This document shows positions 620-29,307 of a DNA stretch of 32,000 nt, in pieces. Origin of the DNA: Phycisphaera mikurensis NBRC 102666. Its GTDB lineage: Bacteria > Planctomycetota > Phycisphaerae > Phycisphaerales > Phycisphaeraceae. A program made the translations under genes and the position numbers. The notes below the pieces were generated by a model. It worked only from the letters and a program-made list of their open reading frames with translations, made no database searches and was not told the origin of the DNA. The stretch spans positions 3,030,001-3,062,000 of the forward strand of contig NC_017080.1 in assembly GCF_000284115.1 (NCBI RefSeq). The letters run 5' to 3'. Position 1 is the stretch's first letter; every line of letters starts with the position of its first letter.

Positions 620-1216
620 TCAGCGGATGTTCTCTTTAAGCGCCGCAATCACGGCCTGCTTGTCGTGGCTGCGGAGGGCGTCGAGGATGTGCTGGTGCTC
701 CTCGAGCACCTCCCCGTAGTCGTGCAGGCGGGAGTACGCCATGAGCATCTTGGCGCAGAGCTGCCGCCAAACCTCCATGAAGTCTTCCGCCCCGCAGGCG
801 AGCAGGACCGCCTCGTGGAAGGCCATGTCGCACCGGGCCACCGCGGCCGCGCTGTCGTTGCTGCACGCGAAGCGGAGCTCGCGCAGCGCCATCTCGATCC
901 CCGCGTAGCCCTCCTCGGTGATGTCGGCGAGGCCGGACTTCACCGCGAAGGTCTCGATCTGCACCCGCAGCGACACGATCATGTCGCGGTTCTTCTTCAC
1001 CGGGGGGTGCCGCACGGTGACGCCGCGGTTGGCGACGTAAGCGAGGAAGCCCTCGTGGGAGAGCTGCAGGAAGGCATCCCGCACCGGCCCCCGGCTGACG
1101 CCCAGCCGCTGCGCCAGCTCGACCTCGCGCAGCACGTGGCCGCCCTCGAAGTTGCCGGCCACCAACTCGTCGCGGAGCGCCCGCGTCACCTGCTCACGGA
1201 CCGTCTGTGGCTGCAT
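620..1216 (-). CDS. GntR-family transcriptional regulator, FadR subfamily (wHTH plus FCD-type helical C-terminal domain)
   Basis: MQPQTVREQVTRALRDELVAGNFEGGHVLREVELAQRLGVSRGPVRDAFLQLSHEGFLAYVANRGVTV is a classic GntR wHTH, followed by an all-helical C-terminus. ATG at 1216 was verified in the sequence. An alternative ATG lies at 1228, and the longest ORF starts at TTG 1321. A TATAGT -10-like hexamer sits at 1247-1252 on the minus strand. Confidence 0.85.
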   Translation of the reverse strand: MQPQTVREQVTRALRDELVAGNFEGGHVLREVELAQRLGVSRGPVRDAFLQLSHEGFLAYVANRGVTVRHPPVKKNRDMIVSLRVQIETFAVKSGLADITEEGYAGIEMALRELRFACSNDSAAAVARCDMAFHEAVLLACGAEDFMEVWRQLCAKMLMAYSRLHDYGEVLEEHQHILDALRSHDKQAVIAALKENIR

Positions 1217-1364: not shown

Positions 1365-1877
1365 TCAGGGACCGGCCACGACCCCGACCGCGGAACCGTC
1401 GGGGCACCCGCCGGCGGCCGCCTCCATCATCTGGATGTTCTCGGGCGACATCTTCGGACCCCAGTTCGCTCCGGTCGCGTCGGAGACGAGTTCAGAGCCT
1501 CCGGTCGCGTCGCCCTCCTTGCGGATCGAGACCCAGCCCACCCGGGCCTCCACCCCGGCGAGTTCGTCCACGCTCATGCCGTTGGTGATGTCCCCGGGGT
1601 CGCCGCAGGTCAGCAGCGTGACGTCGACCAGCGACGATCCCTCACCGATCTGCGGATACGACCGCACCCCGGCGCCGCCCTCCGCGGCGGGAGAGCGGGT
1701 GTCGACCGGCCGGGCGTGAACGATCTGCGTCTCGAGGTCCAGCATCCACTTCTGGTCGCTGGGGCCGCGGTCGGAACCCAGCAGGTTCACCGCGAGGAGG
1801 ACCGCCGCGATGCCGCCGACCACCGCCACGGCACCAAGCTTCAGCAGCTTCTGAGGATCATCTTTGTCGTTGGCCAT
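1365..1877 (-). CDS. Hypothetical membrane-anchored protein (single N-terminal TM helix), downstream of the pseudopilin gene
   Basis: ATG was verified at 1877 and GC3 is high. The N-terminus MANDKDDPQKLLKLGAVAVVGGIAAVLLAVNLL forms a TM anchor. I recognise no domain. Confidence 0.7.
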   Translation of the reverse strand: MANDKDDPQKLLKLGAVAVVGGIAAVLLAVNLLGSDRGPSDQKWMLDLETQIVHARPVDTRSPAAEGGAGVRSYPQIGEGSSLVDVTLLTCGDPGDITNGMSVDELAGVEARVGWVSIRKEGDATGGSELVSDATGANWGPKMSPENIQMMEAAAGGCPDGSAVGVVAGP

Positions 1878-1970: not shown

Positions 1971-2873
1971 TCACTGCTTCGCGTTCCAGTAGTTCGGCCC
2001 GCCGTAACCCCCGCCGGTGGGGAACGTGTCGTCGTTCGCCAGGAACTCGACGTGGCCGTCACCGAAGAGGTGGTTGCCCCGCCACCCCGTGAAGGAGACG
2101 GTGCCGCTCGCGGCGTTCTCGCCGCTGTGGTGGGCGTAGGCCCGCTGGAGGTTGCCGGTGTTCCAGACGGCCGGGAACGCCGCGAGCACGTTCACGGACG
2201 CCCCGTCCCACCCGCCCAGGACGTTCTGCGAGGTGGTCCCGATCAGCCCCTGGTTCTCGGAGATCACGATCGTGCTCGAGCCCGAGGTGAGCTGGTCCAC
2301 CCGCAGCGTGTCCTTCAACGAGTTGCCCGTCGACGTGCCGCCGGAGGGGATGAAGGCCGCGCCCGTGACGCCGCGCAGGTAGTCCGCGGCGCCGGTGGTC
2401 CCGCTGTTGCGGACGTTCATCGCGTAGGTCCGCGGCGACCGCGCCGACGGGTCGTAGCTCGTCGTGGTGATCGTCCCCTCGGCGGTGAAGCTCAGCGGGC
2501 ACTCGTACAACGGGTATCGGAAGGTGTCGTCCGGCACGGCGCCGGGGTTGGTCCCCCGGAACCAGTCGATCGAGCGGCCGTCGTACCCGCCCGTCGCGAG
2601 CGCGTCGTCCCAGGTGTACTGGTCCCCGCCGTAGTCGATCTGCTGGGCCGGCGGGTAGTAGTCCTTCGCATCCGCCGTGTAGGCCGCGATCGCGCGGCCG
2701 AGCTGCTGCTCCTGGGTGCCGCAGGCGAGCACGCGGGCCGTGCGGCGGGCGGCGCCCAGAGCCGGCAGCAGGATGCCGATCAGCAGGGCGATGATGCTGA
2801 TGACCACCAGCAGCTCGATCAGCGTGAAGCCGACGGGTCCGGGGGAAGAACGACGGGGGGCGGGAACGGGCAA
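1971..2873 (-). CDS. Prepilin-type N-terminal cleavage/methylation domain protein, DUF1559 / H-X9-DG class (type II/IV pseudopilin-like)
   Basis: GFTLIELLVVISIIALLIGILLPAL is the class III signal plus hydrophobic helix. The C-terminal HLFGDGHVEFL matches the H-X9-DG motif. I place the start at TTG 2873 because AAGGAG lies 6 nt upstream. The longest-ORF start (TTG 2987) would overlap the candidate promoter. Confidence 0.85.
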   Translation of the reverse strand: MPVPAPRRSSPGPVGFTLIELLVVISIIALLIGILLPALGAARRTARVLACGTQEQQLGRAIAAYTADAKDYYPPAQQIDYGGDQYTWDDALATGGYDGRSIDWFRGTNPGAVPDDTFRYPLYECPLSFTAEGTITTTSYDPSARSPRTYAMNVRNSGTTGAADYLRGVTGAAFIPSGGTSTGNSLKDTLRVDQLTSGSSTIVISENQGLIGTTSQNVLGGWDGASVNVLAAFPAVWNTGNLQRAYAHHSGENAASGTVSFTGWRGNHLFGDGHVEFLANDDTFPTGGGYGGPNYWNAKQ

Positions 2874-2951: not shown

Positions 2952-2987
2952 ATTGTTGACAATATGCACCAAACGTCCGCCCGTCAA
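2952..2987 (-). promoter_or_regulatory. Candidate sigma70-like promoter of the pseudopilin operon with overlapping operator-like motif (site A, ATTGTTGACAAT 2952-2963)
   Basis: The minus strand reads TTGACG (2987-2982), a 17-nt spacer, then TATTGT (2964-2959), immediately followed by CAACAAT. This AT-rich sequence sits in a very GC-rich background. Confidence 0.45.
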
Positions 2988-3095
2988 GCGGCGTGCGTAG
3001 TGGAATCCACCACGCCTCCCTCCACTCCGGCGGCTCGCGTCGTTCCGGGGCGAAGAGCCGCCGATCCCCCGCGGCGCCCCCGCCCCGCATCGCGG

Positions 3096-3141
3096 CCGCG
3101 GACCGCGAGCGGAATCGGCGGGATCCGCCGACGGTCCGCGG
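3096..3141. terminator. GC-rich stem-loop of the CCGCGGACCG/CGGTCCGCGG family, just downstream of the glycoside hydrolase stop
   Basis: CCGCGGACCG (3096-3105) is the reverse complement of CGGTCCGCGG (3132-3141). The loop contains a nested CGGCGG-GAT-CCGCCG hairpin. There is no U-tract. Confidence 0.45.
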
Positions 3142-3150
3142 ATCCGGGCG

Positions 3151-5028
3151 TCAGCGCGGCGCCCCGAACACCCGCATCGTGAGGCTGCTCACGTGGCCGC
3201 CGGGCTCGGCGAACGTCAGCTCCACCTCGTTGTCCTCCTCCAGCGCCTCCGCGGGCACCGGGATCTCCAGGATCCCGAAGAAGCTGTTGCGGCTCTTCTG
3301 ATCGAAGCCGCGCCAATCGGTCGGCACCTCCAGCTCGTGGCCGTTGAAGCGGACACCGGGCCGCAGCGAGCGGCCGTGCTTGCGGCCCAGGCCCAGGCGC
3401 AGCACACCCGTCGCGCCCTCGCCGGCGTCCACGCCGTCGATCTCGAAGGCCAGCGGGCCGTCGCCGATCTCCCGGAGGTAGGCGTCGGCGTAGTGTTTGC
3501 GCTCGCGCACGGTGGCCTCCGCGTCGATCGCGCGGTCGTAGGCGAGCTTCAGGATCGCGGTGCCCTCGGTCCCGATCTCCAGCTCGCCGGGCACCGCGTC
3601 GGATTCGGTCCGGTCGATCACCGGCTTGCCGTCGGGGGCGTGCAGGTGGCGGATCGAGACGCTCCGCAGCGTGGCCCCCCGCGGCGTCGCCACGGCCGGC
3701 GACACGGTGACCGGCTCCAGGTCGAGGTTGTTGAGCACGAGGTAGGCGGTGTCGCCGTCGACGAAGCCCGCGGTCTGGACGTCGGGATCGTCCGACGTCG
3801 TCACGAAGCGCTCGCCGCGGACCTCGTCCCAGAACTTGAAGAACTTGATCAACTCGGTGTAGACCCACGCACCCTGCTCGTTCTCCCGCATCAGGCGGGG
3901 GCCGTAGGGCGTGCCCATCGAGTTGCTGTACCACAACGCCTTCAGGATCATGAAGGGCATCACCTTCTCCATGACCTGGGGCCGCTCCATCATCCCCATC
4001 ATCATCCCGCACCACGCGTTGAGCTGGAGCCAGTCGCGCTCCGGCGACCAGGGGTCGGGCGTGTAGCCGGTGTCGAAGGCGCCGAACTCGGAGATCAGCA
4101 GCGGCTTGACCTCGCCGAGGTCGACCTTGGAGGCGTGCTCGAGCATGTCGAGCACCGCCTCCATGCGGGCGCCCTTGATCCGCCACTGCAGGCCGCGCTT
4201 CCAGCCCTTGTCGTAGAAGTGCACCCCGAAGAAGTCCATGTTGTCGCCGGCGATGGGGATGAACCGCCCCCAGGTCTTCCGCCACTCGTCGAAGTCGTCC
4301 TTCTCGAAGTCGGTCGAGGCCTGGCAGTAACCGCCGATGAGCAGGTCCGGGTGCATCGGACGCACGGCGTCGGCGACGGTGTTGTGGTAGTGGAAGATGT
4401 CGTCGGGCGTCACCGAACCGTCGGCGTCCTTCGCGTCGACCAGCTCGTACACCGGCTCGTTCATCACCTCGAAGTAGACCGGCTTGGGCTGCCCGTGGAT
4501 CCCGTCGGCGTCGCCGAAGAAGTGCGTGAAGTAGCCGGCGAGGTACTTGCCGGTTGCCTCGGCGTCGGCGAAGGCCCAGCCCATCTTCGTCTCCTTGCCG
4601 TCGGGCCAGAAGGGGTGGATGTGGGTGGAGGTCATCAGCGCCGTCCGCGCCTCGTAGCGGTGCAGGTCGGTCCTCTTGGCGTAGCTCTGGCGGAAGGTCC
4701 GGCCGAGCTCTTCCATGTGGGCGGGCGAGGCGTGGCCCGGGTTCCGGGGGTCCTCCTTCAGCTTGCCGAGCGCGTAGGAAGGCCCGCCGACCTCGCGGCC
4801 GAGGTAGACGTCGTGCCCCTCGAGCAGCTCCTCCCGCTGCTCGACGCTCTCCCACTCGCCCTCGGTCGCCATCGAGTGCAGGTTGATGTACTTCTCCCGC
4901 TCGAAGGTCGCGACGTCGCCGATGACGTGGCGGGTGGCGGGATCGGCAGCGACCTCCACCGGCGCGGCGGAGGCGGTGAACGCGGAGCAGAGAACGGGTG
5001 CGGCGAGGACGAGGTGCTGGAGCTTCAT
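3151..5028 (-). CDS. Secreted clan GH-A (beta/alpha)8 glycoside hydrolase with C-terminal beta-sandwich region; candidate beta-agarase/porphyranase (GH86- or GH50-like, family unresolved)
   Basis: ATG was verified at 5028 and the signal peptide is MKLQHLVLAAPVLCSAFTASA|AP. VYFEVMNEP is the NEP acid/base motif. LLISEFG, about 120 aa later, is the nucleophile motif, as expected for clan GH-A. The listed 1,257-aa ORF (to 6924) is a GC-driven extension over the upstream transporter gene. Confidence 0.85.
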   Translation of the reverse strand: MKLQHLVLAAPVLCSAFTASAAPVEVAADPATRHVIGDVATFEREKYINLHSMATEGEWESVEQREELLEGHDVYLGREVGGPSYALGKLKEDPRNPGHASPAHMEELGRTFRQSYAKRTDLHRYEARTALMTSTHIHPFWPDGKETKMGWAFADAEATGKYLAGYFTHFFGDADGIHGQPKPVYFEVMNEPVYELVDAKDADGSVTPDDIFHYHNTVADAVRPMHPDLLIGGYCQASTDFEKDDFDEWRKTWGRFIPIAGDNMDFFGVHFYDKGWKRGLQWRIKGARMEAVLDMLEHASKVDLGEVKPLLISEFGAFDTGYTPDPWSPERDWLQLNAWCGMMMGMMERPQVMEKVMPFMILKALWYSNSMGTPYGPRLMRENEQGAWVYTELIKFFKFWDEVRGERFVTTSDDPDVQTAGFVDGDTAYLVLNNLDLEPVTVSPAVATPRGATLRSVSIRHLHAPDGKPVIDRTESDAVPGELEIGTEGTAILKLAYDRAIDAEATVRERKHYADAYLREIGDGPLAFEIDGVDAGEGATGVLRLGLGRKHGRSLRPGVRFNGHELEVPTDWRGFDQKSRNSFFGILEIPVPAEALEEDNEVELTFAEPGGHVSSLTMRVFGAPR

Positions 5029-5063
5029 GGGCGAATTGGGAGATCGAGGCAACGGGGCAGGGA

Positions 5064-6503
5064 TCAGACCGCCGGGCGGCGCTCTTCGAGTTCGGTCCGG
5101 ATCTCCAGCAGCCGCTTCTTCGAGAGCGGGTACTGCCAGAGCAGCAGGAACACCAGGGCCGTGAAGCTGGCCTGCACCGCCACGTAGCACGCCTTGAGCA
5201 TGAACATCGTGTGGGGGGTCTGCACCGCCTCGGGCGTGGCGTCGTAGCGGATGACGTAGTCGAGCAGCAGCCCGCCGATGAGCACCGAGACCGTCATCGA
5301 CAGCTTCACGAGCCAGTTGCCCGCGGCGGCGATGAGGCCCTCGCGGCGGCGGCCGAACCTCCACTCGTCGTAGTCGCCGATGTCCGCCCGCATCGAGATC
5401 GCCAGCACCCAGAAGCCCGTCTCGGCCATGGCCAGGAAGGGCCGCGAGGCGAGGGTGAGGTACGGCCGGCCGGGCAGGTACGTCCACCACCAGCTCAGCG
5501 TGCCGACGAACAGCACCGCGACGCAGGCGAGCAGCAGCTTCTTCTTCTCGACCCGCCGCGAGAGCCACTGCGTGAGGATGGCGCCGAGGATGCCGAAGAC
5601 CAGCCCCACCGTGCCGTGGTGGCCGCCGAGGATCGCGCCCGCCTGGATGTCGCCGCCGCAGACGTAGTACGTGTGGACGTAGAAGCCCAGCACGCTGTTG
5701 GTCATGATCCCGAAGAGGTACAGGGCGATCGAGCCCATCACGATCCAGAAGGGCCCGTTGCGGACCAGCGTCTTCATCCCCCTGAGCGGGTTCTCCTTCT
5801 CCTGGGCCTGGCCGACCTCCTGGTACCGCTCCACGCAGAAGATCGCCGGGACGACGCCAGCGAAGACGATCACCAGGCCCACCAGCACGCTCACCAGGCG
5901 GATGCCGTTGATGAGCCCGCCGAACACGGTGAGCGAGGCGAGCGGGAGGATCCAGGGGATGCCCAGGTCGAACGCCCGCTGCACGTAGGTGCGGACGGCG
6001 TAGATGTCCGTCCGCTCCTGGTAGTCGGGCGTGAGCTCCATGCCCAGCGACTCGTACGGCACCGAGAGCAGCGAGTAAGCGGTGTAGTAGACGAGCAGGA
6101 TGCCGCACAGCCAGGCGAAGGTCCAGCCGTCGGACCAGCTCTCCGGCACCAGCCAGATCAACGGGAACACGACGCCGGCGCACACCGCGCCCGCGAGCAG
6201 GAAGGGCCGGCGACGCCCGAAGCGGCTGCGGCAGTTGTCCGAGAGCGAGCCGACCAGCGGGTCGTTCACCGCGTCCCACAGGCGGGCGAGGGCCATCGCT
6301 CCGGCGACGGCGGTGGCGCTGAGTCCCAGCGTCACGTTGAAGAACGGCAGGATGAACGCCCCGAGCGCGAACATCGCGTAGTGGTCGCTGACCACGCCCA
6401 TCGCGTACGCGCACTTCTGGCCGAGCGGCACGCGGTCCTCGGGCCGCACGGGCGGATCGACGCGGGCGGCCGCCGGAGCGGGCGGATCGGCTGGATCGGG
6501 CAT
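5064..6503 (-). CDS. Glycoside-pentoside-hexuronide (GPH):cation symporter family MFS transporter (MelB/YicJ-like)
   Basis: ATG was verified at 6503. The protein has about 12 hydrophobic segments and the motif LWDAVNDPLVGSLSDNCRSRFGRRRPFLL, typical of GPH transporters. It lies directly upstream of the GH gene on the same strand. Confidence 0.9.
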   Translation of the reverse strand: MPDPADPPAPAAARVDPPVRPEDRVPLGQKCAYAMGVVSDHYAMFALGAFILPFFNVTLGLSATAVAGAMALARLWDAVNDPLVGSLSDNCRSRFGRRRPFLLAGAVCAGVVFPLIWLVPESWSDGWTFAWLCGILLVYYTAYSLLSVPYESLGMELTPDYQERTDIYAVRTYVQRAFDLGIPWILPLASLTVFGGLINGIRLVSVLVGLVIVFAGVVPAIFCVERYQEVGQAQEKENPLRGMKTLVRNGPFWIVMGSIALYLFGIMTNSVLGFYVHTYYVCGGDIQAGAILGGHHGTVGLVFGILGAILTQWLSRRVEKKKLLLACVAVLFVGTLSWWWTYLPGRPYLTLASRPFLAMAETGFWVLAISMRADIGDYDEWRFGRRREGLIAAAGNWLVKLSMTVSVLIGGLLLDYVIRYDATPEAVQTPHTMFMLKACYVAVQASFTALVFLLLWQYPLSKKRLLEIRTELEERRPAV

Positions 6504-6560
6504 GGCGGAGGCGACCGGAAGAGACGGGCCGTGACCGGGGGCGGACCCGGCGACGCCCGG

Positions 6561-6577
6561 ACTGTAAACAATTGTCA
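6561..6577. promoter_or_regulatory. Operator-like motif site E (ATTGTTTACAGT on the minus strand; contains the ACAATTGT palindrome) in the divergent MFS / FG-GAP intergenic region
   Basis: The plus strand reads ACTGTAAACAATTGTCA. It is one of six related AT-rich sites confined to promoter regions of the sugar locus. Confidence 0.45.
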
Positions 6578-6619
6578 GAGCAGGCCCGCTTCCGCGACGT
6601 CGGCGCCACCCGCCGCCGG

Positions 6620-6636
6620 TAGAGTGTCAACAACAC
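6620..6636. promoter_or_regulatory. Operator-like motif site F (GTTGTTGACACT on the minus strand) abutting a TAGAGT -10-like hexamer that faces the FG-GAP gene
   Basis: The plus strand reads TAGAGTGTCAACAACAC, nearly identical to the minus-strand sequence TATAGTGTCAACAATTG at site B. Confidence 0.45.
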
Positions 6637-6736
6637 GCCGCGCATCCGGTCGTCCCGCTCCCGGCAGAGACGGGCCGCCGGAGCGTTCAAAGCTCGGTCT
6701 CCCCCTCTCGCCGCCGCTCCATCCAGAACACACGAC

Positions 6737-8680
6737 ATGCTCCATCCGGTCCGCCGCTCTCCCGCCCTGCTGACGCTCGGCTCCGCCTTTGCCCTCGCTC
6801 CTCTCGCGGCGGCGGAGCTCCCCTCGCCGCTGGGCGCGGTCCACTTCTTCGACGTCACCGCCTCGGTGGGCATCGTCTCGCCGCCGGATTGGAAGTACGG
6901 CGGCCCGCTGGTCGCCGACTTCAACGGCGACGGCCTCTACGACCTGGTGCTGCAGAACCACGACCAGACGCCGCTTCTGCTGTATTTCGCCAACGGCGAC
7001 GGCACCTACACCCAGCAGAAGGACCCGTACCACCGGGCCGACTTCCACGGGCTCGCGGCGGGTGACTACGACGCCGACGGCGACCCGGACTTCCTGATCT
7101 CGCTCGGCGGCGGCAACGCGACCAACCCCAAGCCGCCCCGGCTGCTCCGCAACGAGGGCGGGGGTGAATTCGAAGACGTCACCGAGACCTCCGGCTTCGC
7201 CGACATCGGCGGCCGCGGCCGCTCCGTGGCGCTCAGCGACCTCGACGACGACGGCGACCTGGACCTGCTGACCATCAACGCCAAGCAGGCGGCGGGCGAG
7301 ACCGGCCCGCGGAACTTCCTCGCGGAGAACCTCGGCGACGGCACATTCGAGCCGCGGAGCAGCGCCGGCTTCGATCAGACCGAGGCGGAGAAGGTCTTCA
7401 TGACCGACTTCGACGGCGACGGGTTCCCCGACGCCATCACCTTCGGGCCGTGGAACGCCGTCAAGTTCTGGAAGGGCGACGGCAGCTTCGGCCTCACCGA
7501 CGTCACCGAGCAGTGGCTGCCCGCCGACCTCCAGAACGCCCGCAGCGTGGAGGCCGTCGCCGAGGCGGACTTCGACAACGACGGCGACCCGGACTACTAC
7601 CTCGCCCGCGGCGGCATGACCAACAACAACGTGGTGGAGGTCGACCCCGAACGCAGCCGCCTCGACATCAAGACCCAGGGCCGCGTGGGCGACCTGGCCC
7701 TCACCTTCCAGACCGAGCCGGGGTCCTCGGGCATCGACCTCACGCGTTTCCACCGGGCGGAGAAGCCCAAGCCCAGCGAGTTCCCCGTCTTCCTGGGGGC
7801 CGAGAAGGAGGAGATCCCGGCGCCGCACGAGATGAAGTGGGTCGGCCCGCCGATGGCCAAGGGCTTCCCCGAAGAGCTCGGCGACAGCGGCTGGTACCTG
7901 GGCCACCTCGGCGACAAGCAGTGGAAGCTCGTCTACCACGCGACCGAGTGGACGGCCTGGAGCGCGAGCGCGTCGTTCATCAACGTCGCCAGCTACGAGG
8001 CGGACTTCAAGGTCGGCAACCCCGACCTGCCCGACCTGTTGCTCCGCAACGACGGCTCCAGCCTCGCCGACGTGTCCGACGGGCTCCCGGAGCTGACCGG
8101 CGACACCAGCCGCGGCGTGGTCGCCGGCGACTTCAACAACGACGGCGGCACCGACTTGTTCGTCTACCGCCACGGCGACCTCACGACCCGGCTGCCCGAC
8201 CTGCTGCTCCTCAACGACGGCGGCGCCGACGGCGGCTTCGCCTTCACGCAGCACCTCGACCACAACGCCACCGACACCAGCGCCGCAGCCCACGGCGACA
8301 TGGGCGCCGCCTTCGACCACGACCTCGACGGGAAGCTCGACCTGTTCAGCGGGGACGCCGACGACGGCAGCTGGCACCTCTACGAGAACCACACCGCCGA
8401 CGCCGACACCGGGAACTTCCTGCTCGTGCGCGTCGGTCGCTCCCCCGGCGGCGTGGACCCCCTCGGCGCGATCGTCCGCGTCGACGCCGGCCACGGCACG
8501 CCGATGCTCCGCGTCGGCGCCGGCGCCTCCGCCTTCTCGCAGAATCTGCTCGACACGCTGCACTTCGGCCTCGGCGACGCCGACGCCGCGGCGAGCGTGA
8601 CCGTCACGTGGCGCGACGGGACCGAGGAGACGCTCGAGAACATCGACGCGAACCAGCGGATCGAGGTCGGCTCGTTCTGA
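6737..8680 (+). CDS. Secreted FG-GAP/VCBS repeat protein with ASPIC/UnbV-type C-terminus (CRTAC1-family-like)
   Basis: ATG was verified at 6737 and a signal peptide is present. DxDxDGxxD-type repeats recur (ADFNGDGLYDLV, GDYDADGDPDFL, SDLDDDGDLDLL, TDFDGDGFPDAI, ADFDNDGDPDYY, GDFNNDGGTDLF, DHDLDGKLDLF). The C-terminus reads RVGAGASAFSQNLLDTLHFGLG...VTVTWRDG. Confidence 0.9.
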   Translation: MLHPVRRSPALLTLGSAFALAPLAAAELPSPLGAVHFFDVTASVGIVSPPDWKYGGPLVADFNGDGLYDLVLQNHDQTPLLLYFANGDGTYTQQKDPYHRADFHGLAAGDYDADGDPDFLISLGGGNATNPKPPRLLRNEGGGEFEDVTETSGFADIGGRGRSVALSDLDDDGDLDLLTINAKQAAGETGPRNFLAENLGDGTFEPRSSAGFDQTEAEKVFMTDFDGDGFPDAITFGPWNAVKFWKGDGSFGLTDVTEQWLPADLQNARSVEAVAEADFDNDGDPDYYLARGGMTNNNVVEVDPERSRLDIKTQGRVGDLALTFQTEPGSSGIDLTRFHRAEKPKPSEFPVFLGAEKEEIPAPHEMKWVGPPMAKGFPEELGDSGWYLGHLGDKQWKLVYHATEWTAWSASASFINVASYEADFKVGNPDLPDLLLRNDGSSLADVSDGLPELTGDTSRGVVAGDFNNDGGTDLFVYRHGDLTTRLPDLLLLNDGGADGGFAFTQHLDHNATDTSAAAHGDMGAAFDHDLDGKLDLFSGDADDGSWHLYENHTADADTGNFLLVRVGRSPGGVDPLGAIVRVDAGHGTPMLRVGAGASAFSQNLLDTLHFGLGDADAAASVTVTWRDGTEETLENIDANQRIEVGSF

Positions 8681-8690
8681 TCCGACGGGA

Positions 8691-8738
8691 CCCGCGGACC
8701 GCGGGCCTCAGGGCCTCGCAGCGGCGGCGGTCCGCGGG
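8691..8738. terminator. GC-rich stem-loop of the CCGCGGACCG/CGGTCCGCGG family, 11 nt after the FG-GAP gene stop
   Basis: CCCGCGGACCG (8691-8701) is the reverse complement of CGGTCCGCGGG (8728-8738). The first arm is also self-palindromic (CCCGCGG-A-CCGCGGG). Confidence 0.45.
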
Positions 8739-8876
8739 AGCGCCGCCGGCCGTCGCGGCCGCGGGACCCGCCTGCGGGGCCCCGCCGCGATCGGGCCGAT
8801 GGGGAGGGGCCGACGAGGCCGGAACGCCGGGTTTGCGTCCCGGCTCGCTTCGCGACAACCGCTAGAATCCTGACTC

Positions 8877-9125
8877 ATGTCTTCTTCTTCCAAGCTCCGC
8901 CGCCTCCGCGTCTTGGAGACGCACCAGCTCCCGGGCACGCTCCGCCGCCTCAGCGGCGATGCCGGCCTCGTGCTCGTGGGCCTGCTCGCCTGGTGGGCGC
9001 TGCCCTTCCAGCAGCCCGGCTCGGTCGCGATCGTCGCCGGGACGGTCAGCCTGCTGCTCGCGAGCGTGCTGCTGCTCAGCGGCCACAACGCGCGGCTCAC
9101 CCGGCGGGCTCTGGAGTCGACCTGA
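8877..9125 (+). CDS. Small hypothetical membrane protein (82 aa, two predicted TM helices)
   Basis: ATG was verified and is preceded by a TAGAAT -10-like hexamer. GC3 is very high. Hydrophobic segments are LVLVGLLAWWALPF and VAIVAGTVSLLLASVLLL. Confidence 0.65.
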   Translation: MSSSSKLRRLRVLETHQLPGTLRRLSGDAGLVLVGLLAWWALPFQQPGSVAIVAGTVSLLLASVLLLSGHNARLTRRALEST

Positions 9126-9210
9126 GCGCCGGGGTTGGCGGGAGACTCCCGGCCGTCCCGTGCTCCCACCAGCGGTCTGCCCCGACGTGCGCCGTCAGGG
9201 CCGGGAAGCC

Positions 9211-10404
9211 TCACACGCCGCGGGTGCCGACGCTCGCTCCGCCGATGCGGTGCGGGGCGAGCCGCTTCCGGTCGAAGTCCACGCCGGTCCCGGGGGAGGT
9301 CGGCGCCACCGCCCGGCCCCCGACGAGGGTGACGGGGTCGAGGATCCACGCCTCGATGGGGAAGCTGTGCCACTCCATCCACCCGCCGTGCCGCTGGCTC
9401 GCGACGAGGCTGACGTGCAGCTCGTGCATGCCGTGCGAGCAGACGGGGATGCCGTGGCGCTCCGCGAGGGCGGCGACGCGGAGCCAGCCGGTGATGCCGC
9501 CGCAGTTCGAGGCGTCCGGCTGGATGTAGGAGAGCTTTGCCTGATCGAAGGCGTAGCCGAATTCATGGATCGTGTGGAGGTTCTCTCCCATCGCCAGCGG
9601 AACCCCGGTGGCGTCGGCGATCCGGGCGAACCCGAGGTAGTCGTCGGGCAGCGTGGGCTCCTCGAACCAGAGGATCCCCGACTCGGCGAACGCCCGGGCC
9701 GCGGCGATCGCGCGGTCGACGCTCATCGCGTAGTTCGCGTCCACCATGAAGGTGACGTCGTCGCCGATCGCGGCGCGGACCGCCCGCACCCGGTCCGCGT
9801 CGGTGGCGAGGTCGGGCAGGCCCACCTTGATCTTGACGCCCTCGAATCCACGCTCGACGGCCCCGGTGACGCTCCCGATGAGCTCGTCCCGCGTGAAGGC
9901 GAGGTCGATGCCGCCGTGATAGACGCGGCAGTCGCCCCGCTCGCCGCCGAGCAGCTCCCAAAGCGGCAGGCCCGCGCGGCGTGCCGCGAGGTCCCACAGC
10001 GCGATGTCCACGGCGGACGCGGCGAAGGCGGCGATGCCGCCGCGGCCCACGTAGTGCAGGTGCCACTCGATGAAGTCGCTGACGCCTTCGACGTCGAGAC
10101 CGTTCTTCCCGAGGAGAGCCTCGGCGAGGTCGTGCTCGAGCACGGCCGCGATCGCGTGCCCGCCCTTGCCGCCCGTGTAGGTGTAGCCGGTGCCGGTGGA
10201 GCCGTCGGCGAGGGTGATCGTGACCGTCACCAGCTCGAAGTGGGAGTGGCTGCCGTGCTTGGCGTCGACGAGGACGCGGGCCAGCGGCACCGCGTACAGA
10301 TCGATCGCCACGCCCCGGATCGCGAGCTTCTCGGCCCCTCCGCCCGACTGGGGCGATGCGGCGGCGGCGGCACGCTTCGGGAGGGCGCCGTTGCGGGCGG
10401 GCAT
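9211..10404 (-). CDS. Enolase-superfamily enzyme (mandelate racemase/muconate lactonizing family); candidate 3,6-anhydro-galactonate cycloisomerase or sugar-acid dehydratase
   Basis: [34 protein letters not shown] and [13 protein letters not shown] match the metal-ligand and barrel motifs of the MR/MLE subgroup. ATG candidates are at 10404 and 10428; the longest ORF (10671) is an extension. Confidence 0.85.
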
Positions 10405-10495
10405 CGGGGGCGTTTGGAGGGGTTGCATGAGGATCCGTGGGCCCGAGAAGCGGCCGCCGCGGAACCGGGACGGGCTCAGCCAGCCGGACGTGCCA

Positions 10496-10532
10496 ATTGT
10501 TGACACTATAGACGGCATCGGACCGCTGCCAA
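10496..10532 (-). promoter_or_regulatory. Candidate sigma70-like promoter of the enolase-family gene with overlapping operator-like motif (site B, ATTGTTGACACT 10496-10507)
   Basis: The minus strand reads TTGGCA (10532-10527), a 16-nt spacer, then TATAGT (10510-10505), followed directly by GTCAACAATTG. Confidence 0.5.
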
Positions 10533-10576
10533 GCGGGAGGCCCGCGGCCGGCGGGTTCCCGCCCGCAGCGGCTAAG

Positions 10577-10588
10577 GTTGTTGACAAT
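10577..10588. promoter_or_regulatory. Operator-like motif site C (GTTGTTGACAAT), 58 nt upstream of the aldehyde dehydrogenase start
   Basis: It has the same 12-mer core as sites A and B and lies in the divergent intergenic region. Confidence 0.45.
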
Positions 10589-10645
10589 CCGCGGCGGCCG
10601 GCACCCCCCCCGGCCGCCGCCGCCCACCCTCCCGAGCCTCCTGCC

Positions 10646-12109
10646 ATGCCCGCAACCGCCCCCGACGTCACCGCCTACGCCTGCTTCCTCGACAACGGCT
10701 GGGTCCACGCCGACGGCGGGGCGACCACCGAGGTCCGCAACCCGGCCACCGGAGCCGTCTACGCGACGGTGCCGGCCTGCTCCAAGGCGCAGGCCGAGTC
10801 GGCGCTGGAATCCTCGGAGCGGGCCCAGCCGGGCTGGGCGGCGCTGCCCGCTCAGCAGCGGGCGTTGTACCTGCACAGGATCGTCGACGGCCTCCGGGCC
10901 GAGCGCGAGCACTTCGCGGGGTTGCTCGTGCAGGAGCAGGGCAAAACGCTGCCCGAGGCACGCGGAGAGGTCGACGACACGATGATGTACCTCACCTACG
11001 CCGCCGAGGCGGCGCGGCGGCTGGAGGGCAGCATCTTCCCGGCGGATCACCCGGACGAGTCGCTCTGGATCACCAAGGTTCCCTTCGGCGTCACCGTCGG
11101 CCTGTGCGCCTTCAACTACCCGCTGGCGCTGATCGGCCGGAAGGTCGGTCCGGCGCTGGTCACCGGCAACACGATGGTGCTCAAGCCGCACGAGGCGACG
11201 CCGGTGACGGCTTCGGAGTTCTGCCGCGTCGTCGAGGAGGCCGGCCTGCCCGCGGGCGTCATCAACATGGTCACCGGCGGCGTCTCGGAGGTCGCCTCGA
11301 CGCTGGTCTCCAGCCCCCGCACCCGCCTGGTCACCGTCACCGGCAGCATCCCCGCCGGGCGGGCGATCTACGCCGCGGGGGCCCAGAACATCACCGCGAT
11401 GTCGCTGGAACTCGGCGGCAAGGCGCCCTTCATCGTGCTCGACGACGTGGACATCGACCAAGTGGTCGAGGCCGCGGTCGTCTCGCGCTTCGCCAACTGC
11501 GGGCAGGTGTGCATCTGCAACGAGATGGTCCTCGTCCACGAGAGGATCGCGGACGAGTTCACCGAGAAGTTCCTCGCGCGGGCCGGCAAGCTGCGGGTGG
11601 GCGACCCCATGGCCGACGGCACCGACATGGGCCCCTACACGACGCCGCAGGGCGTCGAGAAGTTCGAGCAGGTCGTCGCCGCCAGCGTCGAGCAGGGCGC
11701 AGAGGTCGCGCTCGGCGGCAGGCGGGCGGCGGTCGACGGCTTCGAGGGCGGCTACTGGTTCGAGCCGACGGTGCTCGTGAACGCGACCCGCGACACACCG
11801 GCGGTGGAGCACGAGGTCTTCGGCCCGGTGCTGCCGATCGTCAAGATCTCCGGCTACGAAGAGGCCGAGGCGATGGTCAACGGCCGCGACGAGGGGCTCT
11901 CCGCTTACCTCTGGACGCAGAACCACCGCACGATCATGAAAGCGACCCGTGACCTCGAGGTCGGGACGGTCTTCGTCAACAAGGGCATCTGCGGATCGGT
12001 GCAGGGCTTCCACACCGGCCACAAGTGGAGCGGCCTCGGCGGCGAGGACGGCGTGCACGGCATCGAGGGCTACCTGCAGAAGCGCACGATCTACATGAAC
12101 TTCGCGTGA
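10646..12109 (+). CDS. NAD(P)+-dependent aldehyde dehydrogenase; candidate 3,6-anhydro-L-galactose dehydrogenase
   Basis: ATG was verified at 10646. Motifs include [32 protein letters not shown] and [12 protein letters not shown] (catalytic Cys region), with an [16 protein letters not shown] signature. Confidence 0.9.
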
Positions 12110-12224
12110 GCGAGCACGCGGCGCGCGACGCCGCCGCCATCCCCCCCGAGGCTCCACCGAGCGGCCGCGCGTCGTCCCGCGGGCAAACCTCCCGCCTCGC
12201 CTCACCGCGGAGCGGAGCTTCCGC

Positions 12225-12995
12225 TCAGCGACCCATCCACCCGCCATCGACCAGCAGGATCGTGCCGTGCACGTACGCCGCGGCGTCGGAGGCGAGGAAG
12301 ACGGCGGGCCCCTTGAAGTCTTCGGGGTCGCCCCACCGCCCCGCCGGGATCCGCGACAGGATCGACGCGCTGCGGTCGGGGTCGTTGCGCAGCGCCTCGG
12401 TGTTGTCGGTGCTGATGTAGCCGGGCGCGATTGCGTTGACGTTCACGCCGCGGCCGGCCCACTCGTTGGCCAGCGCCATCGTCAGCTGCCCGATGCCGCC
12501 CTTGCTCGCCGCGTAGCCGGGAACGGTCACGCCGCCTTGGAAGGTCAGCAGCGAGGCGGTGAAGATGATCTTGCCGCGGCCTCGCGTCAGCATCCCCCGG
12601 CCGATCTCGCGGCTGAGCACGAACTGCGAGGACAGGTTCACCTCGATGACCTTGTCCCAGTCGGCGTCGGGGTGCTCGGCGGCGGGCGTCCGGAGGATGG
12701 TGCCGGCGTTGTTGAGCAGGACGTCGATGGGCGGGTTGTCCGCCTGCACCTCGGCGGCGAAGGCGGTGAGCGCGGCCCGGTCGGCAAAGTCGCAGGCGTA
12801 GCCGCGGAAGCTCCGCCCCAGCGCCCGCACCTCTTCGCCGACCTCGCCGCCGTCGGCTTCGAGTGTGGCGCTCACGCCGAGAACGTCGGCGCCGGCCTCG
12901 GCCAAGCCGACGGCCATCGCGCGGCCGATGCCCCGCTTGCAGCCGGTCACGAGCGCCGTCCTGCCGGCCAGAGAGAAGGGGGAGGGGTGGGTCAT
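12225..12995 (-). CDS. kduD: 2-dehydro-3-deoxy-D-gluconate 5-dehydrogenase-like short-chain dehydrogenase/reductase
   Basis: ATG was verified at 12995. Motifs are TALVTGCKRGIG (cofactor motif), NNAG and YAASKGG (catalytic YxxxK). The tail NVNAIAPGYISTDNTEALRNDPDRSASILSRIPAGRWGDPEDFKGPAVFLASDAAAYVHGTILLVDGGWMGR closely follows the KduD pattern. Confidence 0.85.
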   Translation of the reverse strand: MTHPSPFSLAGRTALVTGCKRGIGRAMAVGLAEAGADVLGVSATLEADGGEVGEEVRALGRSFRGYACDFADRAALTAFAAEVQADNPPIDVLLNNAGTILRTPAAEHPDADWDKVIEVNLSSQFVLSREIGRGMLTRGRGKIIFTASLLTFQGGVTVPGYAASKGGIGQLTMALANEWAGRGVNVNAIAPGYISTDNTEALRNDPDRSASILSRIPAGRWGDPEDFKGPAVFLASDAAAYVHGTILLVDGGWMGR

Positions 12996-13043
12996 GCGGG
13001 GCTCGGTCGGGACACGGGTCGGGCGGCGGGCGGCGGGGAAAGC

Positions 13044-14063
13044 TCAGCCGCGGCAGTCGATCAGGATCTTCATGTGGTCCGGGCTGTTAGACAGCGAATC
13101 AAAGGCTTCATCGACCCGCGTCAGCGGGTACTCCCCGGTCACCAGGGGGCTCGGGTCGATGGACCCGTCGGCCAGCATCGCGATCGCCCGGTCGTAGTCC
13201 TGGGGCTCGTAGACGCGGGTGCCGATGATCTTCAGCTCCTTCCAGAAGACCTGGAACAGGTCGACCTTCGCCGGCTCGGGCACGATCGCCACGACGACCA
13301 CCCGGCCGCGGACGCAGGCCAGGTGCGTCATCTGAGCGATGGCGGGCGCGGCACCGGAAACCTCGAAGACCACGTCCGCCAGCTCGCCGCCGTTGTGCTC
13401 TTTCACGAAGGCCGGCACGTCCTCGCTCACGGGGTTCACGCCGGCGACGCCCAGCGTTCTCGCCAGCTCCAGCCGCTTGGGGTTCACCTCCGAGAGGATC
13501 ACCTCCGCGCCGGTGGCCCGGGCGACCATGGCGATCAGCATCCCGATCGGCCCGCCGCCGAGCACCACCGCCGCCTCGCCCGCTCGCAGCCCGGCCATCC
13601 GCACGTCGTGGCAGGCCACCGCCAGCGGCTCGACGAAGGCCGCCATCTTCAGGTCCAGCCCCCCGGGCAGCTCGTGGACGAGGCCCGCCGGCACGGTCCA
13701 GCTGCCCTGGAAGGCGCCCGGCGAGTCGATGCCGATGAAGTTCAGGTTCGTGCACACGTGGCCGAAGCCCTTCCTGCAGGCGGCGCAGTCGCCGCAGGCG
13801 TCGAGCGGGCGGACCACCACGGCGTCGCCCGGCTCCACGCTCGTGACGCCCGGCCCCACCTCGGCCACGGTCGCGCTCGCCTCGTGCCCGATCACCTCGG
13901 GGAAGGCGACGCGCCGGTCCATGTGCCCCTTGAAGATGTGCAGGTCGGTGCCGCACACGCCGCAGAAGGCGACCTCCAAGCGGACCTGACCCTCCGCCGG
14001 CGCAATCGACTCGGTGTCCTGGATCTGAAACGACTTGTCGGCTTGGAGGAGCGCGGCGGGCAT
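13044..14063 (-). CDS. Zn-dependent medium-chain alcohol/polyol dehydrogenase; candidate 2-keto-3-deoxy-L-galactonate 5-dehydrogenase
   Basis: ATG was verified at 14063. Motifs are GVCGTDLH, GHEASATV, the structural Zn site DACGDCAACRKGFGHVC, and the Rossmann segment VVLGGGPIG. Confidence 0.9.
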   Translation of the reverse strand: MPAALLQADKSFQIQDTESIAPAEGQVRLEVAFCGVCGTDLHIFKGHMDRRVAFPEVIGHEASATVAEVGPGVTSVEPGDAVVVRPLDACGDCAACRKGFGHVCTNLNFIGIDSPGAFQGSWTVPAGLVHELPGGLDLKMAAFVEPLAVACHDVRMAGLRAGEAAVVLGGGPIGMLIAMVARATGAEVILSEVNPKRLELARTLGVAGVNPVSEDVPAFVKEHNGGELADVVFEVSGAAPAIAQMTHLACVRGRVVVVAIVPEPAKVDLFQVFWKELKIIGTRVYEPQDYDRAIAMLADGSIDPSPLVTGEYPLTRVDEAFDSLSNSPDHMKILIDCRG

Positions 14064-14105
14064 GGGGAGGCTCTGAAGTTGCGGTGAAGCTCGGCGGGAG
14101 CCCGC

Positions 14106-15158
14106 TCAGGCGTGAACGGGCACGTGGCTGGTGAAGCCGCGGATGTACTGCCATTTCCAGTCGGGCCCGTACTTGTGGCACAAGCCCCAGCGGACGCTGT
14201 TGAGCGGGTGGCCGTCGGGGTCGTCGCCTCGCCAGAGGCCGATCGCCTCGGGCCCGCCCTTGATGTGGGCCTTGATCTCGAAGTTGATCCCGTCCTCGGC
14301 GTACTGGAACGTGTTCCGCTCCACGCCGTCGGTGGTGAGCAGGCCGGCGATGCCGCCGCGGTACGGCCACACGCACACCTCGTGCCCGCTGTTGCTCACC
14401 GGGTTGTAGGGGCTCTTCTCGTAGGGCCCGGTGGGGTGGTCGGCGATGGCGACGCCCCAGGCGATCTCCCGCCCGCCGTAGGTCAGCTCCTCGCCCATGC
14501 GTTCGCCCTTGTAGTAGAGGTAGAACTTGCCCTGGAAGGGCAGGATGCACGGGTCGTGCGTCTTGTGGCTGTCGAAGCTGCCCTTGGAATGCACGTGGAA
14601 ACGGTTGTCTTCGTCGCCACGCCACTGCCCATCCTGCGCCGGCGAGAGCACGGGGCCGTCGACCTTCTCCCACGGCCCGAACGGCGAGTCGGCGACGGCC
14701 ATCGAGACGTGCTCGCACACGCGGTTGGTGTAGGGCGACTCCACCGTCTGGTAGACGAGGTAGTACTTGCCGCCGTGGGCCAGGATCTCCGGCGTGAAGA
14801 CCGAACGCTCGTCGTAGGCGCCCTTGGGCCCACGCCCGACGGCGAGGCCTTCCTCCTTCCACGTCTCGCCGTCGGGCGAGGTCGCATGCCAGACCTCGCA
14901 CTGGTCCCACGGGAAGACCTTCAGGCTCTCGTCCCCGGTGCCGAAGCCCGCGGAGGCGCCCTCGCCCCGCGTGTACCAGCAGTGGAAGACGCCATCGACC
15001 TTGATCAGGGCGCTGGGGTCGCGGCGGATGACGCCTTCCTCGTAGGCGAAGTCGCCTTGGAGGTCGTGCTCCTTGAACTCGCAGTACCACTCGGGGCCCT
15101 GCGTGTAAGCCAGCGCCCGCTTGGAGGCGGCGCTGAGGAACCGGGTGTCGTCGCTCAT
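14106..15158 (-). CDS. Cytoplasmic five-bladed beta-propeller glycoside hydrolase, GH117-like (alpha-1,3-(3,6-anhydro)-L-galactosidase / neoagarobiose hydrolase-like; clan with GH43)
   Basis: ATG was verified at 15158, with GGAG 11 nt upstream, and there is no signal peptide. The N-terminal [52 protein letters not shown] resembles my memory of GH117 enzymes. RDP is the clan GH-F catalytic-Asp context. The longest-ORF TTG (15218) lies inside operator site D. Confidence 0.8.
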
Positions 15159-15207
15159 GTCGTGGATCTCCGGGAGGCCGCCGGGACGCGTGGCCCGCGC
15201 GGGGATC

Positions 15208-15219
15208 GATGTTAACAAT
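15208..15219. promoter_or_regulatory. Operator-like motif site D (ATTGTTAACATC on the minus strand), 50 nt upstream of the GH117-like gene
   Basis: The plus strand reads GATGTTAACAAT. The core carries a single G-to-A change relative to sites A-C. Confidence 0.4.
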
Positions 15220-15229
15220 CGACGCCGTG

Positions 15230-15275
15230 CCGCGGACCGCGGGCGTTTTTCGTCGAAACCGGCCGCGGTCCGCGG
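15230..15275. terminator. 13-bp stem / 20-nt loop hairpin of the CCGCGGACCGCGG family, between the pyk stop and the GH117-like promoter region
   Basis: CCGCGGACCGCGG (15230-15242) and CCGCGGTCCGCGG (15263-15275) are exact reverse complements. Each arm is itself palindromic. The loop contains TTTTT on the plus strand. Confidence 0.5.
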
Positions 15276-18535: not shown

Positions 18536-18710
18536 GAGGCCATCCATCGGTCGGGCTTTGCGCGGGTTCTCCACCGCGATCGTTCGCTCCAAATCGGCCA
18601 GGTCGTTCCTCACCGATTCCCGCCGCCCCTATGCTCCCGGGTGCGTCCGGCGTCCGCCGGGGCCGCACACCCCGCTGCTCCACGGCTTCACCGCTTTCCT
18701 GCCCCGCGTT

Positions 18711-23119: not shown

Positions 23120-23130
23120 GCGTCTCCACC

Positions 23131-28226: not shown

Positions 28227-28829
28227 CTACCCCGTCGGCGCTGTCCAAGGCACGTCCGCCACGCCGGCGGCGTGGTTCGCGTAGCGGGCCATCGCGAAGA
28301 GCAGATCCGACAGGCGGTTCAGGTAGACGCCGGTCGGCGGCTCGTCGCCCTGGTGGTCCTCGTCCACGTCGTCCTGCTCCTCCACGCGGCCGAGGCTGAC
28401 GCAGCAACGCTCCGCGCGCCGGCAGATCGTGCGGGCCAGGTGCAGCCGGGCCGAGAGCTCGGTGCCGCCGGGGAGGATGAAGCTGGTCATCGCGGGCACG
28501 GCCGCGTCGACGGTGTCGATCCAGCCCTCGATCTCGGCGATGTGCTCGGGCCCGATCCGGGGCACCATCCGGCCGCCCTTCCCGTCGCGCTTGGGCGTGG
28601 CGAGGTCGGCGCCGATCTCGAAGAGGCGGCGCTGGATCGATCCCAGCGGGCCGGCGATGAGCGAGAGGCCTTCTCCCGCCGCTTCGAGCCGCACGGCGGC
28701 GAGACCCACGGCGGCGTTGAGCTCGTCGACGGTGCCGTAAGCCTCCACCCGCAGGTGGTCCTTGGGGACGCGTCCGCCGCCGAACAGGTCCGTGAGGCCG
28801 CGGTCGCCCCGCTTGGTGTAGAGCTTCAA
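28227..28829 (-). CDS. PduO-type ATP:cob(I)alamin adenosyltransferase
   Basis: (M)KLYTKRGDRGLTDLFGG...RVPKDHLRVEAYGTVDELNA...RTICRRAER...YLNRLSDLLFAMAR matches the MMAB/PduO N-terminal domain pattern. The TTG start at 28829 overlaps the upstream stop (TTGA). Confidence 0.88.
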   Translation of the reverse strand: MKLYTKRGDRGLTDLFGGGRVPKDHLRVEAYGTVDELNAAVGLAAVRLEAAGEGLSLIAGPLGSIQRRLFEIGADLATPKRDGKGGRMVPRIGPEHIAEIEGWIDTVDAAVPAMTSFILPGGTELSARLHLARTICRRAERCCVSLGRVEEQDDVDEDHQGDEPPTGVYLNRLSDLLFAMARYANHAAGVADVPWTAPTG

Positions 28830-29224: not shown

Positions 29225-29307
29225 GCCGGCGACCGTACCCCAAGCGCCGCGGCCGGAGGCCGGTTCGGCGGCCCGCTACCCTCGCCGCCCGCCGCCGGGC
29301 CGCCGCC

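Follow-up and report, generated by a model that had tools for sequence, protein, structure and literature searches.

The window analysed here, a 32,000-nucleotide stretch of the Phycisphaera mikurensis NBRC 102666 genome (NC_017080.1, positions 3,030,001 to 3,062,000), harbors a locus of genes for the use of red-algal galactans, and the promoter regions of this locus contain six copies of an A/T-rich palindrome of 12 bp. As judged by comparative genomics, with a probability of about 0.85, these six palindromes are the operators of the GntR/FCD regulator encoded in the same window at 620-1216 on the minus strand.

The palindromes had been pointed out in a first-pass annotation made from the letters of the window, and all six were recovered at their positions and with their sequences. 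All are intergenic, all lie inside the sugar locus, and they precede the first genes of six transcription units by 50-103 nt. No strand is assigned to a palindrome; the scores are those of the matrix described below.

Operator A, 2952-2963: ATTGTTGACAAT; 24.7 bits; 79 nt upstream of the pseudopilin start (2873, minus strand)
Operator E, 6561-6572: minus-strand ATTGTTTACAGT; 18.5 bits; 58 nt upstream of the MFS_2 start (6503, minus strand)
Operator F, 6623-6634: plus-strand AGTGTCAACAAC; 11.3 bits, the weakest; 103 nt upstream of the FG-GAP/ASPIC start (6737, plus strand)
Operator B, 10496-10507: minus-strand AGTGTCAACAAT; 15.8 bits; 68 nt upstream of the cycloisomerase start (10428, minus strand)
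Operator C, 10577-10588: GTTGTTGACAAT; 20.2 bits; 58 nt upstream of the aldehyde dehydrogenase (ALDH) start (10646, plus strand)
Operator D, 15208-15219: minus-strand ATTGTTAACATC; 22.1 bits; 50 nt upstream of the GH117 start (15158, minus strand)

Sites E and F share the region between the MFS_2 (start 6503) and FG-GAP/ASPIC genes, sites B and C that between the enolase-family gene and the ALDH gene, and the neighbourhoods named in the annotation agree with the gene map. The mixed orientations given there reflect a palindrome written in one arbitrary direction; read toward the adjacent gene, each promoter has one operator. DNA looping between paired sites was considered and rejected: the spacings (62 and 81 bp in the window, 89 bp in locus L063 and 145 bp in locus L064 of other genomes) are neither conserved nor in a common helical phase, and the pairs are therefore read as one operator per divergent promoter.

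Because the G+C content of the window is 71%, an A/T-rich 12-mer is rare in it. The pattern TTGTTNACA is matched at all six sites, against 0.05 matches expected, and none of 100 shuffles reaches six; the degenerate pattern RTTGTTGACAMT, put forward in the annotation as the consensus, turned out to be too narrow, covering four sites (A, F, B and C; 0.00 expected). A symmetrised matrix trained solely on sites from other genomes yields the scores listed above and finds no other place of at least 8 bits in the 32 kb, as had been claimed for the coding sequence and the housekeeping half, while Markov shuffles of the window give 0.06 hits at ≥12 bits. If up to three mismatches to ATTGTTGACAAT are permitted, one extra place appears (11972-11983, within the ALDH gene, CTTGTTGACGAA), its matrix score being below 8 bits. 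The 9.4 kb to the left of the window were scanned with the matrix as well and contain no further site; an ABC transporter and an AP_endonuc_2 gene in this region, considered as extra regulon members, were rejected for this reason.

From 41 foreign sites and the six of the window, the general consensus is a perfect palindrome, ATTGTTAACAAT or ATTGT-NN-ACAAT, with 2 nt between GT and AC. The TTGACA contained in the core named in the annotation is a local variant and not a -35 box: in the window genome the centre is mostly TG/CA, and the four TTGACA hexamers of the window all lie within the motif, whereas foreign sites have the core TTAACA. The suggestion of a GntR-type operator was well founded. 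The family consensus is NyGTNxACNy, with TKGT/ACMA boxes in the FadR subfamily; the usual spacing is 3 nt, and the form GTM-N0-1-KAC implies 2-3 (PMC4494728, a survey without Planctomycetes). With its A/T-rich sequence and x = 2, the window motif fits NyGT-Nx-ACNy within this range.

The assignment to the local regulator follows from the conservation of the motif with this protein. Loci were fetched from species-representative genomes (58 in total, denoted by L numbers), and sites were counted over the 57 foreign ones as matches to ATTGTNNACAAT within 260 nt upstream of the regulator gene, with random windows of the same loci as control. Most loci carry TTGT(TA/TG/AG/CA)ACAA 30-190 nt upstream of the regulator gene. 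At least eight of the ten positions of ATTGTNNACAAT are matched in 48/57 loci versus 8.7% of the control windows, at least nine in 37/57 (control 2.0%), and a perfect match is present in 21/57 (control 0.8%). Within the 866 kb of foreign loci the matrix produces 83 hits of at least 14 bits, where 3.4 are expected; about four of them adjoin neither the regulator nor carbohydrate-related or neighbouring secreted-protein genes, a number that matches the chance expectation. The variant found at operator D, ATTGTTAACATC, stands in identical form in front of the regulator in L048. Across genomes the motif is kept both upstream of the regulator and upstream of syntenic target genes, the pattern of an autoregulated local repressor regulon.

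Homologs with 35% identity from Puniceicoccaceae are also preceded by the motif, in the form AATGTTAACAAT, although their neighbours are different genes, so that the motif tracks the regulator and not a particular target gene. In these verrucomicrobial loci (L054-L056, Puniceicoccaceae / Oceanipulchritudo) the distance to the regulator is ~165 nt, and extra sites in L055 (10734, 18380 and 20075) precede genes for a PQQ-like beta-propeller protein, a TonB-dependent receptor and a sulfatase. The verrucomicrobial homologs thus seem to control a related regulon with different content.

The product of 620-1216 combines a GntR domain (PF00392, 47 bits versus a cut-off of 27) with an FCD domain (PF07729, 56.8 versus 24.3) and gives full-length matches to the FCD structures 3FMS, 2HS5 and 3SXY, and the annotation's choice of this GntR/FadR gene as candidate regulator is strengthened by these domains and by the motif upstream of its orthologs. 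About 290 homologs (E ≤1e-10, 50-80% identity) are found in Phycisphaerae, Pirellulaceae, Fuerstiella and other Planctomycetota, the nearest named one in a Phycisphaeraceae metagenome-assembled genome (L003). The search against NCBIfam reached no named GntR equivalog (DgoR, LldR, NanR, CsiR, PhnR and others), the best model being phnR_burk with 97.3 bits versus a cut-off of 271.5; since it stays below every equivalog cut-off, the regulator represents an unnamed orthogroup. In an alignment of 13 orthologs the helix-turn-helix (…LRE.ELA.R.GVSRGPxRDA..QL..EG.L.Y.ANRGV…) is nearly invariant and its recognition region GVSRGPxRDA invariant, and a conserved DNA specificity is therefore expected. Of the four metal ligands of an FCD pocket (Asp and three His), three have their putative counterparts in D134, H138 and H178, invariant throughout the orthogroup; the fourth position is occupied by an invariant N200 and not by His.

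A consensus scanner called three sigma70-like promoters in 18.7 kb, against 0.5 expected, and two of them coincide with sites, namely with A and B. These two and the -10-like hexamers at further sites are as follows.

Pseudopilin operon promoter, 2959-2987, minus strand: -35 TTGACG (2987-2982), 17-nt spacer, -10 TATTGT (2964-2959); 9/12 matches
Cycloisomerase promoter, 10505-10532, minus strand: -35 TTGGCA (10532-10527), 16-nt spacer, -10 TATAGT (10510-10505); 10/12 matches
-10-like GACAAT, 6571-6576, minus strand: overlaps the first two bases of operator E and faces MFS; CAAGAT at the same offset in L063; weak, putative
-10-like TAGAGT, 6620-6625, plus strand: overlaps operator F and faces FG-GAP; TAAAGT at the same offset in L063; no -35 box found
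-10-like TAAGGT, 10573-10578, plus strand: overlaps the first two bases of operator C and faces ALDH; putative

The promoters at A and B face the downstream gene, and the operator overlaps the -10 box and the expected start; the arrangement at A recurs in L003 and L008. TAAGGT is placed relative to operator C as the TAAGAT class is to the operators of L023, L025 and L035, and operator D contains TGTTAACAT, tentatively read as similar to an extended -10 box. The annotation had noted three sites abutting -10-like hexamers, TATTGT, TATAGT and TAGAGT; all three are present and overlap the sites, the first two within full sigma70-like promoters, the third without a -35 box. Among 47 foreign autoregulatory sites, 15 are accompanied by a stringent -35/-10 pair, with the -10 box always starting 1-4 nt before the operator, and 28 have a TAnnnT hexamer at offset -3. 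The GH117 promoters of L008 and L019 have the operator in the spacer between the -35 and -10 boxes. Such operator positions are typical of repression by occlusion, the sign of regulation predicted here and already expected in the annotation. Next to operator D, between it and the stop codon of the pyruvate kinase gene, a G+C-rich inverted repeat (CCGCGGACCGCGG ... CCGCGGTCCGCGG) occupies 15225-15275, in which the scanner called a plus-strand terminator-like hairpin with a T run at 15225-15242. Transcription of the pyruvate kinase gene may in this way be kept from reaching the GH117 promoter.

Instead of being a pure repressor, the regulator might act as activator or dual regulator at some promoters, for instance at C, D, E and F, where a -35 box is not detectable; weak core promoters often depend on activators, and FadR, the founder of the subfamily, is both repressor and activator. 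We regard this as unlikely, as the operator overlaps the -10/+1 region at A, B and 15 foreign promoters besides filling the spacer in L008 and L019, and the -10-like hexamers at C, E and F overlap their operators with the offset of the clear cases. In addition, DgoR, an FCD regulator of sugar-acid use that has been characterised, acts as a repressor (PMC11705089).

A second alternative accepts the operator as real and ascribes it to another protein, be it a GntR paralog or some unrelated factor from another part of the genome, the local GntR gene being merely a neighbour. In its favour, no operator precedes the regulator gene of the window, and it gains from other planctomycetes with two orthogroup copies and almost the same motif (L045/L059, L020/L032 and L030/L021) as well as from L047-49, where the regulator adjoins a 35%-identical paralog with ATTGTAGACAAT. 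Against it stand the motif upstream of orthogroup members of several families in 48/57 loci, following the regulator despite differing neighbours, and the nearly invariant helix-turn-helix, which matches the conservation of the motif. Moreover, in the window as in L063 the regulator gene comes after units under site control and points the same way as they do. Taken together, these features make binding by another regulator distinctly improbable. The second GntR/FCD paralog (~35% identical) lies immediately upstream of the orthogroup regulator at 8959-9628 in L047, 7735-8395 in L048 and 9126-9782 in L049, and has a variant palindrome of its own, ATTGTAGACAAT or ATAGTAGACAAT; in L038, L043, L044 and L051 this variant with AG in the centre stands before the main regulator.

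That the motif is a general promoter element, such as a TTGACA -35 box or an alternative sigma-factor promoter, is suggested by its location in promoter regions and by the exact sigma70 -35 consensus TTGACA in four sites, but is rejected as highly improbable: none of the four has a -10 box 16-18 nt downstream, the A and B promoters run on the opposite strand, the motif lies at the -10/+1 region, its core in other genomes is TTAACA, it is a 12-bp palindrome found in either direction with respect to the genes, neither the housekeeping half of the window nor the 9.4-kb left flank contains it, and its unlinked foreign hits (~4 in 866 kb) are at chance level (3.4).

Several observations nevertheless weigh against assigning the six palindromes to the GntR/FCD regulator as repressor operators. 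Nine of the 57 foreign loci are without a clear site, some of them having variants such as ATTATTAATAAT, and the training sites were chosen by likeness to a window-derived consensus, a circularity which the random-window control reduces, though not entirely. In some genomes (L045/L059; L047-49) two to three related GntR paralogs are present whose motifs are almost the same, so that the pairing of paralog and site is ambiguous. Within the window, site F is weak with 11.3 bits, and at C, D and E no convincing -35 box accompanies the -10-like hexamers from which occlusion is deduced. Finally, the 148 nt upstream of the regulator gene (1217-1364) contain no operator but only a TATAGT box (1246-1241, minus strand, in the 1229-1364 gap), and any autoregulation in the window would need read-through from operator A or E. 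The regulator gene is the last in a row of genes that share one direction (MFS - GH86 - pseudopilin - small protein - GntR), and in L063 it directly follows GH86. At the matching position L008 and L019 have a degenerate half-operator (TATACTGTTAACGAAAG and TATAGTGTCGATTAAAAG), which suggests that an autoregulatory site upstream of GntR has decayed in the lineage of the window.

The gene map of the locus was derived from Pfam, NCBIfam and PDB-sequence searches together with public gene calls.

620-1216, minus strand: GntR/FCD (FadR-subfamily) regulator, 198 aa, proposed repressor; Pfam GntR and FCD
1365-1877, minus strand: 170-aa protein with N-terminal membrane anchor, no family match; between the pseudopilin and GntR genes
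1971-2873, minus strand: DUF1559 pseudopilin with N-terminal methylation motif; first gene behind operator A
3151-5028, minus strand: GH86-like beta-porphyranase/agarase; Porphyrn_cat_1 and BPA_C domains
5064-6503, minus strand: MFS_2 / GPH-family sugar:cation symporter; first gene behind operator E
6737-8680, plus strand: FG-GAP repeat / ASPIC-UnbV protein; behind operator F
9211-10428, minus strand: 3,6-anhydro-L-galactonate cycloisomerase, enolase superfamily; PDB 5XD7, E 1.2e-149
10646-12109, plus strand: aldehyde dehydrogenase (ALDH); 3K2W, E 6.5e-144; 6J75, E 1.2e-133
12225-12995, minus strand: KduD-like short-chain dehydrogenase (SDR); TIGR01832, 317 bits, just under the cut-off of 338.85
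13044-14063, minus strand: Zn-dependent alcohol-dehydrogenase-family oxidoreductase (Zn-ADH)
14106-15158, minus strand: GH117 3,6-anhydro-alpha-L-galactosidase; 3R4Y, E 2e-148; 4AK5, E 1.6e-141; 3P2N, E 2.2e-137; first gene behind operator D

Beyond GH117 a pyruvate kinase gene and then housekeeping genes follow. By these matches the locus is predicted to encode the breakdown of agar/porphyran oligosaccharides and the catabolism of 3,6-anhydro-L-galactose. The reported conversion of 2-keto-3-deoxy-L-galactonate (L-KDGal) to 2-keto-3-deoxygluconate (KDG) would suit the Zn-ADH and the KduD-like SDR. Judging from its context, the ALDH is probably the 3,6-anhydro-L-galactose dehydrogenase, so that this enzyme and the cycloisomerase, with GH117 as the source of the anhydrogalactose, represent the L-3,6-anhydrogalactose pathway of the Vibrio sp. 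EJY3 type, whose first two steps are summarised in PMC11219438.

Some features of the window lie apart from the sugar genes. A 103-bp tandem repeat (2.3 copies, 89% matches) fills 316-547 between the end of an ABC permease gene and the GntR stop codon; each unit contains inverted copies of CCCCGCAAGCGGCGTGGCACCC, with five copies on both strands versus none expected, and the repeat looks like a REP-type element. The open reading frame at 22127-23134 (minus strand) has a weak match to an IS200-like Y1 transposase (E 8e-4, 20 bits versus a cut-off of 23) and could be a REP-associated tyrosine transposase related to this repeat. Two genes at 18651-19625 (plus strand) and 28227-29390 (minus strand), ~9 kb apart, encode a protein that combines a MerR-type helix-turn-helix with B12-binding domains, the architecture of CarH-like light/B12 regulators, and adjoins the threonyl-tRNA synthetase gene, and a PduO-type cobalamin adenosyltransferase.

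In relatives the regulator is linked to the same catabolic genes, as a dedicated sugar regulon, postulated in the annotation, would imply. In searches by tblastn with the window proteins it adjoins Zn-ADH, SDR, ALDH and cycloisomerase in more than 20 loci, which often add GH117, GH86, GH16, an agarase with carbohydrate-binding module (CBM), KDG kinase and KDPG aldolase, with extra sites in front. The order in Pirellulaceae is site - GntR - RhaT-like transporter (- aldose epimerase) - Zn-ADH - SDR - ALDH - cycloisomerase (- GH117); a divergent unit of KDPG aldolase and PfkB kinase uses the same site, and a second site precedes the agarase-CBM protein. A further regulator copy in the same genomes, flanked by GH16 and GH117-like genes, has sites of its own. 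The Pirellulaceae cycloisomerase is closer to 5XD7 (L-type, 7e-100) than to 5OLC (deposited as 'galactonate dehydratase', 6e-47), which we take to be the Zobellia D-anhydrogalactonate enzyme, and the ALDH is likewise nearer to L-anhydrogalactose enzymes. The comparison favours the view that these clusters serve the L- and not the D-anhydrogalactose pathway.

In the high-GC loci L008 and L019 sites are located between ALDH and GH117-ZnADH-SDR-GntR and also before pseudopilin-cycloisomerase. The two closest relatives, L063 and L064, carry sites at promoters orthologous to those of the window. L063 (80% identity) has two sites in the divergent region between FG-GAP and MFS, with deviations matching those of F and E in the window: the counterpart of F by the FG-GAP gene reads GTTGTTAACACT (window GTTGTTGACACT) and that of E before the MFS gene ATTGTTTACAAT (window ATTGTTTACAGT). 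The sites of L064 (75% identity) lie in the ALDH/cycloisomerase region, before the regulator, in the agarase/FG-GAP region and before a GH16-GH117 operon. A pseudopilin gene stands behind a site also in L008, and behind a weak one in L063; the FG-GAP/ASPIC gene is site-linked in the window, L063 and L064. High-scoring sites were also observed before genes for small PEP-CTERM-anchored proteins (L010 4672, L013 8383, L063 3707 and L064 2543) and before those for ~495- and 397-aa proteins without a Pfam family (L038 5208 and 7086; L044 7283).

We therefore propose the following model, in which binding and effector are, like the sign of regulation, predictions. The six units with one site each (pseudopilin - small protein (- GntR); MFS - GH86; FG-GAP/ASPIC; cycloisomerase; ALDH; and GH117 - ZnADH - SDR) would together provide for the cleavage and uptake of agar/porphyran oligosaccharides and the conversion of 3,6-anhydro-L-galactose towards KDG. 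Without substrate, a dimer of the regulator would sit on each operator, one winged helix per ATTGT half-site, and block RNA polymerase at the -10/+1 region. A pathway intermediate would then bind to the putatively metal-containing FCD domain and release the DNA, the effector most plausibly being a sugar acid, either 3,6-anhydro-L-galactonate or 2-keto-3-deoxy-L-galactonate.

A switch of this kind resembles several known systems. The gluconate operon repressor GntR of B. subtilis, founder of the family, recognizes the operator ATACTTGTATACAAGTAT with the core TTGTATACAA, TTGT-NN-ACAA, having two bases between GT and AC as well; its operator lies across the gnt promoter, and induction is by a sugar acid (original reference: Fujita and Miwa 1989). 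In contrast to the system described here, B. subtilis GntR belongs to a different phylum and pathway and has a single operator. Among structures, where the nearest ones are otherwise uncharacterised FCD proteins, the best full-length match (E 4e-11) is T. maritima TM0439 (PDB 3FMS / 3SXY), a GntR/FCD protein with bound metal, whose D-x3-H and H residues align with D134, H138 and H178 of the regulator; similarity is low, however, the fourth metal-ligand position is Asn200 in the orthogroup, and function and operator are unrelated.

E. coli DgoR, the D-galactonate repressor, shares with the window regulator a GntR winged helix and a helical effector domain, metal-containing in DgoR and putatively so in the window regulator, and serves a sugar-acid pathway via 2-keto-3-deoxy-galactonate; its gene is the first of its operon, as in the Pirellulaceae loci, and inverted repeats with TTGT...ACAA arms (IR1 = ATTGTAGTACAAC) overlap its promoter (PMC11705089). 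The DgoR arms are TTGTA/TACAA with one central base and the repeats are two adjacent ones, whereas the window has ATTGT/ACAAT with two central bases in six dispersed operators and a substrate branch of L-anhydrogalactose from agar. A close sequence relationship is also missing, as no NCBIfam equivalog cut-off is reached and the PDB matches are other FCD proteins. Two further regulators are comparable by substrate: DagR of Streptomyces coelicolor, reported for agar genes (PMC8055832, listed as retracted), belongs to the LacI family, and CgrA of Zobellia galactanivorans, which regulates carrageenan genes (PMC5698469), is an AraC-family activator, each with a different motif. The latter publication draws 'GNTR-like' genes in carrageenan loci of some bacteria, unanalysed and without an operator. 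Full-text searches of the available literature library turned up neither an account of the operator nor one of GntR control over anhydro-L-galactose catabolism, and they returned no polysaccharide regulon from a planctomycete. The mechanism is conventional; as far as these searches show, a well-known kind of switch is new for the phylum.

Transcriptional control in Planctomycetota is little known. Motif and regulator are conserved in many marine planctomycetes, which makes agar/anhydrogalactose regulons predictable from sequence; they also point to candidate inducers and could furnish an inducible promoter/repressor pair for genetic tools in planctomycetes. Furthermore, they link DUF1559 pseudopilin, FG-GAP/ASPIC and PEP-CTERM proteins to the use of red-algal galactans. 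To our knowledge, Planctomycetota lack SusC/D systems. Tentatively, the regulon might also co-regulate surface or envelope proteins, namely the DUF1559 pseudopilin and FG-GAP/ASPIC and elsewhere PEP-CTERM proteins, perhaps as a substrate-specific apparatus for the capture or uptake of agar oligosaccharides. If this rather doubtful idea were true, the operator would for the first time tie the greatly expanded DUF1559 family to a specific condition from which its function could be approached.

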